NCBI GenBank assembly: GCA_964510165.1
Contig: CAZEBC010000091.1
Location: 1 to 15,606 of the forward strand
From: an uncultured bacterium
GTDB taxonomy: Bacteria; Abyssobacteria; SURF-5
DNA length: 15,606 bases
Reading direction: 5' to 3'
Within the stretch, counting starts at the first letter, position 1; each line of letters begins with the position of its first letter. This document shows positions 2,882 through 14,857 of the stretch, one piece after another. Both the position numbers and the translations under genes were made by a program. The notes beneath the pieces are model-generated. The model ran no database searches. It had not been told where the DNA came from and saw only the letters and a list, made by a program, of their open reading frames with translations.

Positions 2882-2910
2882 TTGACACCCCTCGGACGAG
2901 ATGCTAAAAT
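2882..2910 (+). promoter_or_regulatory. Sigma70-type promoter for the kinase/glycosylation cluster
   Basis: TTGACA (2882-2887), 17-nt spacer, TAAAAT (2905-2910) with extended -10 TG at 2902-2903. Confidence 0.8.
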
Positions 2911-2945
2911 GAACATGTCTCCCTAAGAAAAATCGAGGTTGACCC

Positions 2946-3800
2946 ATGCCAGAGGAAGGCTTTGTAGACAAACGGATAGAGGAGTACCGAATTCTGGCCG
3001 AGATCGGCCGCGGCGGCATGGGAATTGTCTACAAAGCGCTCGACGAGAAGCAGAACCTCCTTGTCGCGATAAAGGTGCTGCCCCCCGATTTTCTGGCGGA
3101 CAAACGCAAATCGCAATATCTCGACCACGAATTCAAGATCGCGCTCGAACTGCGGCATCCCAACATAATCCGTTTCCTCAGGCTCGTCAAGACTGCCGCC
3201 CCCAACGACAAAGTCAAACGGGGATTCCTTGTGATGGAATTGGTGGACGGCTGGAACATGCGCCGCCATATCCAGCAGCAGGACCTCAGCACGTTCCAGG
3301 CTCTCGACCTTGTGACCGCGATATGCAACGGACTCGGATTCATCCATGACCACGGCATCGTGCATGGCGACATGAAGCCCGAAAACATCCTCATCTCTCC
3401 TGCCGGCGCGGTGAAGATCGCCGATTTCGGCCTGTCTCAGGTTGACAGCTTCTTCCAACTGACCCGCGACAAGCTGCGCGGCACCAAGAGATACATGGCC
3501 CCCGAACAGCTCACCAGGAAGAAGGTGGACGTGCGCACCGACATCTATTCGCTGGGCGTATCCCTCTATGAATTGTTCACCGGGCAATCCCCTTATACCG
3601 GAAAGACCCAGGACGAGGTAACGCGCGAAATTGTGGACAGGCGGGTCAAGGCCACGCCTCCCTCAAAGATCAAGCCCAGCCTCCATCATTACCTCGACAG
3701 AGTGCTCATGAAGACCCTCGAGAAGAATCCCAAGGACAGGTACCACTCCGTGCTTGAACTGATGCTCGATCTCAAGCGAGTGGCCCGGGCACAAATCTAG
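2946..3800 (+). CDS. Hanks-type serine/threonine protein kinase, catalytic domain only
   Basis: GRGGMGIV loop, VAIK, HPNI, VMEL, HGDMKPEN, DFG, YMAPE, DIYSLG; gagg SD at 2936-2939; no TM segment. Confidence 0.95.
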   Translation: MPEEGFVDKRIEEYRILAEIGRGGMGIVYKALDEKQNLLVAIKVLPPDFLADKRKSQYLDHEFKIALELRHPNIIRFLRLVKTAAPNDKVKRGFLVMELVDGWNMRRHIQQQDLSTFQALDLVTAICNGLGFIHDHGIVHGDMKPENILISPAGAVKIADFGLSQVDSFFQLTRDKLRGTKRYMAPEQLTRKKVDVRTDIYSLGVSLYELFTGQSPYTGKTQDEVTREIVDRRVKATPPSKIKPSLHHYLDRVLMKTLEKNPKDRYHSVLELMLDLKRVARAQI

Positions 3801-7784: not shown

Positions 7785-10598
7785 ATGCCGAAAACGATAA
7801 AAGACGGGGAAAAAGACTACTCGAAAACTCTGAATCTCCCGAAAACTTCCTTTCCCATGAAGGCAAACCTCCCCAAGAGGGAGCCTGACCTCGTGGCCTT
7901 TTGGAAGGACGCGGACATTTACGGAAAGATTCGCGAGCGCATGGCTGGCAGCCCGAAGTTTATCCTTCATGATGGCCCGCCATATGCGAACGGTGACATC
8001 CATCTGGGGACCGCGCTGAACAAGATATTGAAGGACATGATCGTGAAATTCAGGACCATGAACGGCTTTGACGCGCCGTACGTGCCCGGCTACGACTGTC
8101 ACGGTCTGCCCATTGAGTTCAAGGTGCTCGCGGAACTGGGTGAGGCCGAGAAGAATCTGCCGAAGCCGGAGATACGTAAGCGCTGCCGTGATTATGCCCT
8201 CAAGTACGTGGATATCATGACCGAGGACTTCGAGCGACTCGGAGTTTTCGGAGAGTGGAAACATCCATATCTCACGCTCAGCCATACGTACGAGGAGAAG
8301 ATACTGACAGTCTTCGGTGAGATGTACGAGCAAGGCTTGATCTATCGGGGACTGAAGCCCATCACGTGGTGTTTCAACTGCCGGACCGCCCTCGCCGAGG
8401 CCGAGGTCGAATATGCCGACCACACGTCCCCATCCGTCTATGTGAAGTTCGAGGTGGTTGAAGGTCTGGATGGTCTCGGAGGGAAGCCCTATCTCCTGAT
8501 CTGGACCACGACGCCGTGGACGCTCCCCGCCAACCTGGCCACATGCGTGCATCCGTTTTTCGACTATGTGGCCGTAGAGGTAGGCCCCGAAGTGTACGTC
8601 ATGGCTGAATACCTGAAGCCGGCCGTGCTCGAGAAAACCGGCGCCGACCCGAAATCGAGAGTTTTGAGGCACATGAAAGGGAGCGAGATGGAAGGCATTC
8701 GGTACAGGCATCCTTTCATCGACCGCATAAGCCCGGTGATCCTGGGCGAGCATGTCACGCTTGAACAAGGCACCGGCCTCGTTCACACCGCTCCAGGACA
8801 CGGACAAGAGGACTATGTGGTGGCCTCCAAGTACGGGATTCCCGTATTCTCGCCCGTGGACGACGATGGCCGCTTCACGCCGGAGGCGCCGCTGTTTGCC
8901 GGCAAACACGTGTTCGACACGAACGACGAGATCGTCCGTTTGCTCCGCGACAAGGGAGCATTGCTCCAAGACGAGCAGATCGTGCACCAGTATCCTCATT
9001 GCTGGCGCTGCTTGAATCCGACCATTTTCCGGGCCACCTCGCAATGGTTCATAACTATGGAATCCGACGGCCTCAGGAAGCGCGCGCTCGAGGCGATCAA
9101 GAAGGTGACCTGGATTCCGGAATGGGGCCAGGAACGGATTTATGGAATGGTGGCCAATCGGCCAGATTGGTGCATCTCGCGACAGCGTTCCTGGGGAGTG
9201 CCCATTCCGATCTTCTATTGCGAGAGTTGCGGAAAAGAATTCTTCGATAGCCGCGCGTTCGCACACCTGAAGAAACTGGTGGCCGAACACGGCGTTGATG
9301 TGTGGTTCACCCGCGAACCCAAAGACCTGCTTCCCGAGGGTACTGCGTGCGAGTGCGGCTCTTCCGAATTCGTCAAGGAGGAGGATATCCTCGACGTGTG
9401 GTTCGAATCGGGCGTCAGCCACCGGGCCGTGCTCGAGACCACCGAAGGGCTTTCGTTCCCGGCCGACCTCTACCTCGAAGGCAGCGACCAGCACAGGGGA
9501 TGGTTCCAGTCCTCGCTCCTGCCCGCCGTCGCGGTCAAGGGCTGCGCCCCTTATCGAGCCGTGCTCACGCACGGGCACGTTGTTACCGCAGACGGCAAGA
9601 AGATGTCCAAGAAACTCGGCAATGCCATCTATCCCGACGAGGTGATAGAGAAATACGGAGGCGACGTGCTCAGGCTGTGGGTCGCATCCGAAAATTTCAC
9701 CCAGGACATACGGGTTTCCTTCGAGATTTTCCAGCGGCTCGCCGACGCTTACAGGCGCCTTCGCAATACGTTCAAGTTCCTGCTGAGCAATCTGTATGAC
9801 TTCGAGCCCGACAAGCATTCTGTGCCGTATGAGCGAATGGACGAGATCGACAGATGGGGGCTGCACGCGCTTCAGGAAACTATCGAGCGGGTAACCAAGG
9901 CCTATGAGTCATACGAGTTCTTCACCGCGTTCCACACGCTGTACAACTACTGCACGGTTTCCCTGAGCGCGTTGTATTTCGACATGCTCAAGGACCGCCT
10001 GTACACTCTGTCGGCGGACAATCCGCTGCGCAGATCCTCGCAGACCGCTCTCAACATCATCCAGCACGCCCTCACGCGCATGCTCGCCCCCATGTTGAGT
10101 TTCACGGCGGAGGAGGCTTGGGCGGCCATTCCCAATCAGCCGGGCCGCGAGCCGAGCGTTCATCTGTGCGCATGGCCCCGACTGGAGAAACGCTTTGTCA
10201 ATCAGGAACTGGCTGAACGGTGGCAACGCCTTCTCGATGTGCGTTCTTCGGTCACCAAAGCTCTGGAAATCGCCCGGAGGCAAGGCTTGCTCGGAAACTC
10301 TCTCGAAGCAAAGGTGGTTCTCTATCCAGAAAAACCCGATGAGCACGCTTTGCTGAGCAGCTTTGAAAACATGGCGCCGACAGTGTTCATCGTGTCGCAG
10401 GTGGAACTGCATTCGCCCGGCGAGGAACTTCCAGAGGATATTTTCGTCAAGGACGAGGCCGTTGCGGTGGCAATAAGAAAAGCTGACGGCGAAAAGTGCA
10501 CGCGCTGCTGGAATTACAGGGAGTCCGTAGGAGAGTCGGAAGAGCATCCCTCGCTGTGCAGGAGATGCATCAAGGAACTGGGAGGGACAGATGAATAA
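7785..10598 (+). CDS. ileS: Isoleucine--tRNA ligase (type 1, C-terminal zinc finger)
   Basis: [91 protein letters not shown]-terminal CTRCW...CRRC. Confidence 0.99.
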
Positions 10599-10965
10599 GA
10601 AGGAACTCAAACAGTTGAAGAAGGAACTCGAGCGATTGAGAGACCAACTGACCGATGAACTGCAACATCTGTCCGAGAACAATCTGAACCGCTCTCAACG
10701 CGACTCGACCGGAGACCTTTCCGGGTACTCGTACCACATGGCCGACGTGGGTACCGACAATTTCGGGCGCGAAATGGAACTCAACATCGCCTCCAGCGGA
10801 AATGAAAGGCTTCGCATGGTAGAAGAGGCGATCGAGAGAATCGAGGAAGGAACATATGGAAAATGTGTCTCGTGCGATAACGAAATCCTTTTCGATCGGC
10901 TGAAGGTCATTCCCTACGCGAGGTTATGCATTGATTGCGCGCGCGAGGTCGAAAAGAAATACTGA
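10591..10965 (+). CDS. TraR/DksA family C4 zinc-finger protein
   Basis: Coiled-coil N-terminus, HMADVGTD tip, [14 protein letters not shown]...[14 protein letters not shown]; ggaggg SD; overlaps the ileS stop. Confidence 0.92.
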
Positions 10966-13302: not shown

Positions 13303-13341
13303 AATTTCGGGGACATCATGCAGCATGATGTCCCCGAAATT
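13303..13341. terminator. Perfect 18-bp hairpin between convergent genes (bidirectional terminator or REP-like element)
   Basis: aatttcggggacatcatg (13303-13320), loop cag, catgatgtccccgaaatt (13324-13341). Confidence 0.7.
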
Positions 13342-13371: not shown

Positions 13372-14199
13372 TCAGATTACATACAGGAAACGGGTGCAGT
13401 TGGGACATGTCGTCACGGTGTGAGAATCGCGCAGCGCCTGTGCGAACGAAGACGAGAGCTGGATGTTGCAACCGAGGCAAATTTCCTCCTCAACGGCAAC
13501 CACCGGCTGGCTGACCTTCGCCTTCAAACGGTCATAGTGAGCCAGCAGGCGGGAAGCTATGCACGAACGCACCTGCTCGATCTTCTCGGCAAGCGCGTCC
13601 CCCTCGCCCTTTTCCACATCGCGCAGGTTCTCAAGCCTCATCAATCGTATCAGAAGCACGAGGTCCGAGTCGGTGCCCCTCACCATTTTCCCTTGCGCGT
13701 CATCATCAGACCTTGCGGGTGCGGCCGATGGGTGCAACATCAACCCCTCGCTGGCCTGCTCGAGCACTTTGTACATGCTTGTCGTGGAGGGCGATTCCAT
13801 AAGTCTTTCGACGAGGTTCTCGTCGAGCACCAGGCGCGATATCGAAGAGATGAAATACAGATACTTGTGAGCGTCGGAAGGCGGATACAGGATCAGAAAC
13901 ATGAGGTGCACAGGATTCCCGTCGATCGAACGATACTCAATGCCCTCCTTTTTTCGGCCGACCGCGCACAACATGCTGTCGATGGTGTTCACCCGGGCGT
14001 GCGGCACTGCTATCCCCGAACCGATGCCGGTGCTGTCAAAGCTCTCGCGCTCCAGCACCCGCTCCAGCACGGCGTCCATATCATCGATCTTGCCCTTCTT
14101 ATGCAGGAGTCGCGTCAATTCCCGTATCGCATGCAACTTGTCGTTGCTCTTAAGGTTAGAAACTATGCAGTCTTTCGATATATATTCGGTTAACTTCAT
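13372..14199 (-). CDS. PTS EIIA (Fru/Mtl/Ntr type) domain fused to a C4 zinc-ribbon domain (zf-RING_7/DUF164-like)
   Basis: LERESFDSTGIGSGIAVPHAR, GIEYRSIDGNPVHLMFLI; C-terminal LLAHYDRL...VVAVEEEICLGCNIQL...VTTCPNCTRFLY. Start placed at ATG 14199 (MKLTEYI); the track start 14271 overlaps the -10 box; ATG 14211 and 14235 are alternatives. Confidence 0.9.
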   Translation of the reverse strand: MKLTEYISKDCIVSNLKSNDKLHAIRELTRLLHKKGKIDDMDAVLERVLERESFDSTGIGSGIAVPHARVNTIDSMLCAVGRKKEGIEYRSIDGNPVHLMFLILYPPSDAHKYLYFISSISRLVLDENLVERLMESPSTTSMYKVLEQASEGLMLHPSAAPARSDDDAQGKMVRGTDSDLVLLIRLMRLENLRDVEKGEGDALAEKIEQVRSCIASRLLAHYDRLKAKVSQPVVAVEEEICLGCNIQLSSSFAQALRDSHTVTTCPNCTRFLYVI

Positions 14200-14270
14200 G
14201 CTGTTTCTCATCTCTGCCTGTCTTCTCTTTGGCATTAGCCCACCATAATTAGCCTTGGGTAATCCAAACA

Positions 14271-14299
14271 ATTATACCGTTACGCTCCGTCCATGTCAA
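14271..14299 (-). promoter_or_regulatory. Perfect-consensus sigma70 promoter for the EIIA-zinc ribbon gene
   Basis: Minus strand TTGACA (14299-14294), 17-nt spacer, TATAAT (14276-14271). Confidence 0.88.
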
Positions 14300-14325
14300 G
14301 AAATTGCACGCACCTTCCCCCAAAG

Positions 14326-14355
14326 TTGCCGGAAAGGCCTTGTTAGTGGTAGAAT
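14326..14355 (+). promoter_or_regulatory. Putative divergent sigma70 promoter for the lipoprotein gene
   Basis: TTGCCG (14326-14331), 18-nt spacer, extended -10 TG-g-TAGAAT (14347-14355). Confidence 0.55.
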
Positions 14356-14416
14356 TATAAAAACCGCTTCACCGGTCCATGGGATACGTGAACGACAAAC
14401 AATGAGGAGGGCAACC

Positions 14417-14857
14417 ATGCCGCGCAATGTCCCGTCGAAGTTGTTGATGCTCTCGTTCTGCGCAGTTGTGCTGGCGGCGTTCATCGGATGTCAGACAGAT
14501 GGTGTGAGCACCAAGGCACTGGCCGAACCGCCGCCTCCCGCGCCCGCCTACACCTTCCACTACTACCCGCAAGTCAATATATACTACGACGTCGAACGCG
14601 ACCTCTATTTCTATCCGGAGGGCGGCCAGTGGAAAGTCGCGGAGTCCTTGCCCCACGGTGTTGGGCTTGCCGGAGATTTCCTGGTGGTCGACCTGCGCGT
14701 TGGCGCGCCTGCCGCCTTCAACCCGCCGCCACAAGAGTCCGCGCCATCGGCTGAGGCGCCCAAGCAAACCGAGGCGCCCAACGAAACTGCTCTGCCGGAG
14801 CCTGAATCCGAAGTCGTAGTCGTACGGATTGACCAGATGTTAGAGGAACAGCCGTAG
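14417..14857 (+). CDS. Putative lipoprotein of unknown function
   Basis: Strong SD gaggagg (14404-14410) before ATG 14417; basic N-terminus, hydrophobic stretch, lipobox-like FIG-C; Tyr-rich core; Pro/Glu/Ala-rich tail. Confidence 0.75.
   Translation: MPRNVPSKLLMLSFCAVVLAAFIGCQTDGVSTKALAEPPPPAPAYTFHYYPQVNIYYDVERDLYFYPEGGQWKVAESLPHGVGLAGDFLVVDLRVGAPAAFNPPPQESAPSAEAPKQTEAPNETALPEPESEVVVVRIDQMLEEQP

Follow-up and report, generated by a model that had tools for sequence, protein, structure and literature searches.

The window analysed here, 15,606 nucleotides long, represents the forward strand of contig CAZEBC010000091.1 (GenBank assembly GCA_964510165.1) from an uncultured bacterium of the GTDB lineage Bacteria; Abyssobacteria; SURF-5. 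On the minus strand it carries a gene whose product joins, in a single polypeptide, an EIIA domain of the phosphotransferase system (PTS) and a C4 zinc ribbon (Table 1), and whose C-terminal module is predicted to dock on the β′ subunit of RNA polymerase. An initial annotation, made from the nucleotide sequence alone, had described this fusion and proposed it as a candidate one-component device that links PTS phosphorylation to sigma54 or RNA through the zinc ribbon. Pfam supported the architecture, with both domains scoring above their cut-offs: PTS_EIIA_2 (PF00359) covered residues 6-148 (profile positions 2-143 of 144, E 3.8e-31, 108.4 bits, cut-off 27), and Zn_ribbon_9 (PF02591, formerly zf-RING_7) covered residues 241-272 (E 2.5e-8, 34.3 bits, cut-off 29.1). 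The long coiled coil of CT398-type proteins had been called nearly absent, and the protein indeed gave no Pfam match to CT398_CC (PF24481) at E values up to 1; only three short helices precede the ribbon, placed by DSSP at residues 178-195, 200-212 and 216-228 of the structural model described below. When the protein was scanned with NCBIfam, every model stayed below its own cut-off. The top match was a fructose IIA domain model (100.1 bits vs a cut-off of 103.5), the two PtsN equivalogs reached 78.2 vs 138.7 (TIGR01419) and 64.8 vs 221 bits (NF008145), and CdsZ (NF047363) scored 31.3 bits against a cut-off of 275, aligning residues 198-273 to profile positions 155-231 of 251.

Table 1. Features of the fusion gene and its flanks, in window coordinates.
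Feature	Position	Strand	Basis or remark
Coding sequence of the EIIA / zinc-ribbon fusion protein, 275 residues	13372..14199	-	stop codon 13372-13374; stop-free translation
EIIA(Ntr)-like domain, residues 1-155	13735..14199	-	Pfam, PtsN structure matches, pLDDT mostly 85-96
Codon of His67, predicted phospho-acceptor	13999..14001	-	IAVPHAR motif; aligns with the PH motif of PtsN
Codon of Tyr113, site of the second active-site His (His120 in E. coli PtsN)	13861..13863	-	phmmer alignment to 1A6J
Pro/Ala/Asp-rich flexible linker, residues 156-175	13675..13734	-	pLDDT <50; columns poorly conserved
Three short helices, residues 176-232	13504..13674	-	DSSP; remnant of the CT398-type second coiled-coil helix plus connecting helix
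C4 zinc ribbon, residues 233-275, Cys241/244/265/268	13375..13503	-	Zn_ribbon_9; bears most predicted β′ contacts
Sigma70-type promoter match, TTGACA-17-TATAAT	14271..14299	-	12/12 consensus positions, ~60-70 nt upstream of the start; predicted
Terminator-like hairpin, 18-bp stem and T-rich tail	13303..13341	-	pattern match, between the fusion gene and a convergent ECF-type ABC ATPase gene

A stop codon in the linker was looked for and none was found. In addition, a ~97% identical contig from run X3, which belongs to another study, covers the whole gene, and the differences within the coding sequence are substitutions only; the sole insertions or deletions of this contig, at 14309 and 14316, both lie upstream of the gene. 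This check of gene integrity compares DNA contigs and not raw reads; a look-up of RNA runs listed none.

We next modelled the fold of the protein. An AlphaFold2 model obtained from a 48-row alignment (pLDDT, the per-residue confidence, 84.8; pTM, the predicted TM-score, 0.56) showed two well-folded parts, the EIIA fold spanning residues 1-155 and the C-terminal part, with the low-confidence linker (156-175) between them. By sequence, the best solved relatives of the EIIA part are PtsN entries (1a6j, E 6e-16; also 3urr, 4gqx and 2a0j). Likewise, the top Foldseek matches of the model were PtsN structures (1a6j, E 1.1e-12), with 1a6j, 3urr, 2a0j and 4gqx at ranks 1-6, TM-scores of 0.83-0.90 normalised to target length and root-mean-square deviations of 1.6-2.1, in keeping with the regulatory EIIA-Ntr kinship that had been suggested. 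Foldseek also matched the CT398 structure 4ilo_A (E 6.6e-5), and sequence searches of the C-terminus against solved structures returned CT398 (4ilo, E 5.3e-6, residues 189-273 aligned to 150-234) and HP0958 (3na7). The segment of helices and ribbon, hereafter the module, further aligns to the last ~95 residues of a canonical CT398-like paralog in the same genome. The module is thus the C-terminal end of CT398/HP0958-type proteins without the long coiled coil.

The predicted phospho-acceptor and zinc-binding residues are strictly kept. Among 116 full-length homologs of 260-310 residues (5 of 121 proteins were left out by length), His67, Tyr113, Cys241, Cys244, Cys265 and Cys268 are each present in 116 of 116, the cysteines of the fusion ribbon following the pattern CXXC-X20-CXXC. 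The position assigned to His67 by the initial annotation was correct, as was its observation that the second active-site His has given way to Tyr; all other points of its description that were checked proved right too. The pair R51-E52 is invariant in the family alignment and aligns to R-E of PtsN, upstream of the GxGxA loop; we take R51 to be the conserved EIIA active-site Arg, and the position of Tyr113 presumably equals that of His111 in EIIA-Mtl. Tyr is also found at this position in most wider fusion clusters, with His in P0150, and His is kept by a paralog of the same genome that pairs EIIA with a helix-turn-helix domain (HTH-EIIA, P0123), as read from its sequence.

The fusion protein has 304 homologs by a word-indexed search; among the matches listed, 118 of 120 carry both Pfam domains, the other two being short fragments. 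In the organism's own GTDB phylum (11 species), whose β′ relatives carry the name Candidatus Abyssobacteria, 10 of 11 genomes encode a full-length fusion, and the eleventh genome is 77% complete. In a phylum labelled Hydrogenedentota, 125 of 135 genomes contain a match at E 1e-40 or better, in single copy, and nearly all of these matches span model positions 1-276 within one open reading frame (ORF). Enzyme I (EI) was detected in 131 of the 135, including 9 of the 10 genomes that lack the fusion, and RpoN in every one of the 41 genomes sampled from this phylum; all are metagenome-assembled genomes (MAGs), which makes absences soft. In the ESM Atlas, the pair of EIIA and zinc ribbon occurs in 7 of the 30 nearest clusters, one of which has 319 members with Aminicenantota as the commonest label. 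Scanning genome contigs with the family alignment was less specific: nearly all of the 80 loci kept are plain EIIA genes, the patterns having come from the EIIA domain, and only five (L017, L018, L019, L025 and L043) reached the fusion C-terminus, L043 as two adjacent ORFs and L019 interrupted by a TAA codon. The architecture is therefore not rare, being common in at least two candidate phyla, and the fusion is probably a core regulator both in Hydrogenedentota-labelled genomes and in its own candidate phylum.

To place the protein in a PTS context, we searched the 97.05% complete genome assembly. EI and HPr are encoded in a cluster lptC-lptA-lptB-hpf-hprK-rapZ-HPr-EI (contig C1:38315-44996, locus L016), on a contig other than that of the fusion gene, and the HPr retains both its His and its Ser phosphorylation motifs. 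Classically, rpoN and ptsN belong to a cluster of this lptB-hpf-rapZ type; here both are missing from it, and the two rpoN paralogs are found on contigs C50 and C20, with unrelated neighbours and away from PTS genes. No match to PTS_EIIC (PF02378), PTS_IIB (PF02302) or EIIC-GAT (PF03611) was found in the assembly. The presence of EI, HPr and HPr kinase with no EIIB/EIIC match points to a regulatory output of the PTS and not to a part of a transporter, and the fusion is accordingly a regulatory, non-transport PTS protein with an EIIA(Ntr)-like domain. In total, four proteins of the genome contain PTS_EIIA_2: the fusion, a stand-alone EIIA of 200 residues, a Na/H-exchanger fusion and the HTH-EIIA protein. 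The exchanger fusion is a 494-residue ORF (contig C21:13233-14717; L011 5234-6718) with a Na_H_Exchanger domain and a C-terminal PTS_EIIA_2 domain; the 200-residue stand-alone EIIA gene lies divergently beside it. This second type of fusion again suggests that the organism uses EIIA as a general-purpose regulatory add-on. A canonical 236-residue protein with CT398_CC and Zn_ribbon_9 is encoded as well.

We co-folded the module as residues 174-275 (48-row alignment) with residues 720-1356 of the genome's own β′ (39-row alignment) and obtained scores of 0.72, 0.71 and 0.72, the best of 3 controls reaching 0.00. The mark applied to such scores is met by 116 of 157 solved complexes and by 2 of 215 mismatched pairs, and is a rough guide here, where our own alignments were used. 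The runs share at least 95% of their contacts, with a partner pLDDT of at least 78. On the module, the predicted contacts involve residues 221, 224-225, 228, 240, 244-252, 254, 257-258 and 266-269; on β′, they involve 769-772 and 1100-1245, the latter within a stretch (1090-1260) that aligns to E. coli β′ 1148-1319, which we take to be the jaw and shelf. The structures solved for homologs of the module (4ilo, 3na7, 5y05/5y06) all show the protein on its own, so the positive score does not reproduce a known complex. In the fusion family, module positions with predicted contacts vary less than those without (entropy 0.81 vs 1.31 bits; Mann-Whitney p 0.016, or 0.034 when Cys is left out). In accessible passages, a preprint (10.64898/2026.07.15.738315) proposes from AlphaFold 3 (AF3) models that the ribbons of ML1638 and CT398 anchor at the β′ shelf and jaw of the whole core enzyme, and that the distal tip of the coil reaches the sigma site and touches the core-binding domain of sigma54. 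Our co-fold of module and β′ agrees with this proposal for the full-length relatives. In sum, the model supports binding of the module to RNA polymerase β′ without demonstrating it.

Our best reading, which we consider about equally likely to hold or to fail, is that the fusion tethers a phospho-sensor of EIIA(Ntr) type to RNA polymerase. By analogy with the family, His67 would receive the phosphate of phosphoenolpyruvate (PEP) from EI and HPr, whose genes lie elsewhere and whose relay HPr kinase would gate. The zinc-ribbon module would dock on the jaw/shelf face of β′, as the co-fold predicts, and a polymerase with a docked module would carry the EIIA domain on a tether of ~20 residues. The phosphorylation state of EIIA may then alter what the domain touches or recruits at the polymerase, or else the freedom of the module to dock. 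Transcription would thereby respond directly to the carbon and energy state of the cell. The β′ site would be shared with the canonical coiled-coil paralog, which might conceivably compete with the fusion.

Several points weigh against a polymerase-tethered sensor. The case for it is computational throughout. How the phosphorylated and unphosphorylated forms would act at the polymerase we purely infer, and the pTM of the AlphaFold2 model does not fix the arrangement of EIIA and module. Only the C-terminal 637 residues of β′ were folded, and β, omega or the N-terminal half of β′ could cover the contacted surface. In 128 relatives that lack EIIA (canonical and short), conservation is no higher at the contact positions than elsewhere in the module (2.44 vs 2.36 bits, p 0.75), which limits the conservation argument to the fusion family, where the signal may partly reflect the zinc-knuckle core. 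Finally, the gene neighbourhood offers no hint of a role in transcription or of a functional partner, and co-occurrence, like neighbourhood, adds nothing in favour of the polymerase.

Beyond the fusion itself, the association of EIIA with the ~100-residue module recurs in other arrangements. Four genomic forms link the two: the fusion, a fusion in reversed order, a pair of HTH-EIIA and a free mini zinc-ribbon protein, and a pair of EIIA and a mini protein. Among the best 150 module relatives in a library of 1.84 billion proteins, 22 contain EIIA, 44 are canonical proteins of 220-245 residues and 84 have at most 190 residues, some of them fragments; full-length fusions account for 17 clusters, and in 2 the module precedes EIIA. 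In these reversed proteins (P0158 and P0268) the module occupies residues 7-104 and EIIA ~133-269, with the Pro-His motif and the Tyr-Leu signature kept. The genome under study has a split pair on contig C121:4071-5364 (locus L012): 23 bp past the end of the gene for the 316-residue HTH(XRE)-EIIA protein P0123 comes a module-homologous mini zinc-ribbon ORF of 106 codons (P0122). An HTH-EIIA gene directly upstream of a free mini gene, on the same strand, was seen in 8 genomes, at 9 of the 14 loci examined, the remaining five including one at a contig end and two weak hits, and in one Eisenbacteria-labelled MAG a mini ORF comes after an EIIA ORF. The free mini family comprises 17 clusters in the word-indexed search and is multi-copy in the own phylum, with five copies in one genome (G003) and a second copy in ours at a contig end (C111:12926-13222). 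Many free minis end in Lys/Arg/Pro-rich tails, and one source labels the free forms 'predicted nucleic acid-binding Zn-ribbon protein'. Fusions in both orders together with split pairs show that EIIA and the module belong together. Zn_ribbon_9 is also fused to a BMC (microcompartment shell) domain in P0243, a protein of 127 residues, and in P0162 the module is joined to a 30-residue fragment of RNA cyclase, which may be an artefact of assembly or gene calling.

A broader and more tentative proposal, which we regard as possible and somewhat doubtful, unites these forms into a family of polymerase-resident PTS sensors, in which the ribbon would be a portable tag for the β′ jaw and shelf, split minis would act as bridges and the different forms would compete. 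If this were true, the free minis would connect an HTH-EIIA factor with β′ in a phosphorylation-dependent manner, and competition among fusion, minis and canonical paralog would switch the polymerase between a sigma54-supporting and a PTS-responsive state.

Of the competing explanations, the one that survives best, improbable as we judge it, casts the fusion as a sigma54-specific adaptor or chaperone whose ribbon end binds or stabilises RpoN and whose EIIA phosphorylation tunes sigma54. EIIA-Ntr genes classically sit in rpoN operons, and the genome, besides EI and HPr, encodes two rpoN genes, with RpoN present throughout the sampled Hydrogenedentota-labelled genomes. Moreover, zinc-ribbon Cys mutants of HP0958 lose RpoN, according to the accessible text of PMC3372290, and CT398, RpoN and core polymerase were placed in one complex (Barta 2015, as cited in the accessible part of PMC5947703). 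However, the same part of PMC5947703 credits Barta 2015 with binding of RpoN by the coiled coil of CT398 alone, and this coil is absent from the fusion; in the AF3 model of the preprint passages cited above, it is again the distal coil tip that contacts the core-binding domain of sigma54. The sigma54 explanation is thus weakened because the RpoN-binding coil is precisely the part that was lost. Full-length relatives are known from Actinobacteria, a group without RpoN (PMC3372290, accessible text), which indicates that the ribbon can do without sigma54. Genomic context does not help either: the fusion gene adjoins neither rpoN of its genome, nor does it adjoin rpoN at any other locus examined, and the co-occurrence with rpoN and EI that the initial annotation proposed to examine proved uninformative, since RpoN is universal in the sampled phylum and EI nearly so.

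Less probable still is an RNA-binding adaptor, in which the ribbon would bind specific mRNAs and EIIA phosphorylation would control their fate. HP0958 binds flaA mRNA (Douillard 2008, Caly 2010, both as cited in the accessible part of PMC5947703), and the label and basic tails of the free minis fit nucleic acid binding. The fusion protein, in contrast, has no basic tail and ends three residues past its last strand, an Rfam search of the whole window at gathering thresholds yielded 0 matches and thus no RNA element, and the conserved face of the module is taken up by the β′ contact in the co-fold. With respect to the initial annotation, the link between PTS domain and zinc ribbon in one polypeptide stands, and the sigma54 or RNA target is not borne out in the form proposed: the annotation was right in outline, as a phospho-regulated zinc-ribbon device, and probably wrong on the target, because the lost coil is the part reported to bind RpoN and what has been kept is the ribbon, which is predicted to anchor the protein on the polymerase.

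We assign a similarly small likelihood to the idea that the module has no role at the polymerase and serves EIIA itself as partner or pseudo-substrate, in a phospho-switched intramolecular contact, or else partners another target such as export regulators of the FliH/CdsL kind. Both fusion orders and the split pairs are a classic signature of mutually binding parts, and CT398 binds CdsL and FliH through coil and ribbon (Barta 2015, as cited in the accessible part of PMC5947703). This explanation nevertheless leaves the strong and control-clean β′ co-fold unaccounted for, and a contact between EIIA and module would not be mutually exclusive with docking on the polymerase. An ordinary sugar-transport EIIA, as suggested by the database names of fusion proteins ('PTS sugar transporter subunit IIA' or similar) and by the fructose IIA domain score just under its cut-off, is hardly credible given a 97.05% complete genome with no match to any of the three EIIC and EIIB models, PtsN as the first-ranking solved relative, a replaced second active-site His and a zinc-ribbon module that is invariably attached.

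Returning to the polymerase-tethered sensor, its closest known counterparts each share one side of it. PtsN (EIIA-Ntr) of Proteobacteria (1A6J, 3URR, 4GQX, 2A0J) has the same fold and is the best match of the fusion EIIA in sequence and structure, with phospho-acceptor His and active-site Arg conserved. PtsN is the regulatory end of a PEP-EI-HPr/NPr relay, and the fusion resembles it as a regulatory end point in a genome with no EIIB/EIIC match. It differs from PtsN in falling below both equivalog cut-offs, in having Tyr for His120 and 120 extra residues, and in lying outside any lptB-rpoN-hpf-ptsN-rapZ-npr neighbourhood. Furthermore, PtsN binds its targets TrkA, KdpD, PhoR, SpoT and GlmS in trans, whereas the fusion has its output module built in. 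With CT398/CdsZ of Chlamydia, HP0958/FlgZ of Helicobacter and MSMEG_4306/ML1638 of mycobacteria, the fusion has the C4 ribbon and the preceding connecting helix in common, and the β′ jaw/shelf position predicted for its module is the one that the accessible preprint text proposes for ML1638 and CT398 on the basis of AF3. In place of their ~130-Angstrom coiled-coil hairpin, with its reported RpoN contact, the fusion carries EIIA on a flexible linker; the ~180-residue CT398_CC is unmatched in the fusion and matched by the genome's canonical paralog. In a 2011 census, all but three of 349 family members consisted of coil and ribbon, the one exception described in the accessible text being a NIF3 fusion (PMC3372290).

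HPr-Rsd of E. coli is similar in that the phosphorylation state of a PTS component feeds into the transcription machinery and not into a DNA-binding regulator. In that system HPr binds an anti-sigma factor in trans, affecting sigma-factor competition. Unlike the fusion as modelled here, HPr-Rsd has neither EIIA nor a zinc ribbon and makes no contact to core polymerase. PRD/EIIA regulators of the MtlR, LicR and LevR type use PTS_EIIA_2 as a phosphorylatable control module and bind DNA or sigma54 activator sites. P0123, the HTH-EIIA protein of this genome, belongs broadly to that group, whereas the fusion has no domain for binding DNA and, according to the co-fold, would dock on the polymerase instead.

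Targets known for regulatory PTS branches are kinases, transporters and enzymes, and HPr-Rsd lets the PTS influence sigma-factor competition; a PTS domain that resides on RNA polymerase itself would be new. In a literature search that left paywalled journals outside its reach, we found no report of the EIIA-zinc-ribbon architecture or of a polymerase-resident PTS domain, and no publication characterising the fusion. In the accessible part of an E. coli RNA polymerase interaction screen (PMC3958368), ptsN appears only as bait, with data missing in one trial. If the broader proposal of a polymerase-resident family were true, several candidate phyla would park an EIIA sensor on their polymerase, and PEP/pyruvate and HPr-kinase signals would act there without a DNA-binding regulator. 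The CT398/HP0958 family, in turn, is widespread and its core function is unsettled. The fusion, a natural truncation that retains the ribbon end and still co-folds with β′, supports a division of labour in which anchoring on the polymerase falls to the ribbon and the coil serves as a variable effector arm. The parts of the fusion are small and soluble-looking, and thus suited to reconstitution outside their uncultured hosts.

At the locus itself, the fusion gene looks monocistronic. An in-frame ATG at 14211, four codons upstream of ATG 14199, is an alternative start, and TTG 14271 was rejected as a start because it lies inside the -10 hexamer of the promoter match, neither hexamer of which holds a substitution in the X3 contig. 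As the initial annotation had stated for PTS genes, no PTS gene, and also no rpoN gene, lies next to the fusion gene. Among relatives of the own phylum, the gene is convergent to a row ileS-dksA-lspA-lgt in 5 of 6 cases examined. In our window this row includes a gene for a DksA/TraR-type C4 zinc-finger protein (10591-10965, plus strand). Members of the DksA/TraR family bind RNA polymerase, and the adjacency to dksA, kept in these 5 of 6 relatives, may be mere synteny. Two Hydrogenedentota-labelled loci (L017 and L018), whose genomes may be close kin, have the order HIT, aroE, fusion gene, cyclic nucleotide (cNMP)-binding gene; the last encodes a small cNMP-binding-domain protein on the same strand (L017 3215-3643, L018 5188-5676) and is followed by a gene for a trypsin-like protease.

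On the other side of the fusion gene, a divergent ORF (14255..14857, plus strand) more likely starts at ATG 14402 or 14417, both of which give a lipoprotein-like signal peptide; its TTG at 14255 is disfavoured as a start, since the ORF would then overlap the promoter match. The product of 14402-14857 is a predicted lipoprotein of ~150 residues with no family match, and the ~200 bp of intergenic DNA that it shares with the fusion gene contain the promoter match. Elsewhere in the window, two minus-strand ORFs have no family match: one at 2904-3587 overlaps a Ser/Thr kinase gene (2946-3800, plus strand) and is probably spurious, and the other, at 2179-2916, encodes 245 residues and lies between an AFOR gene and the kinase gene.

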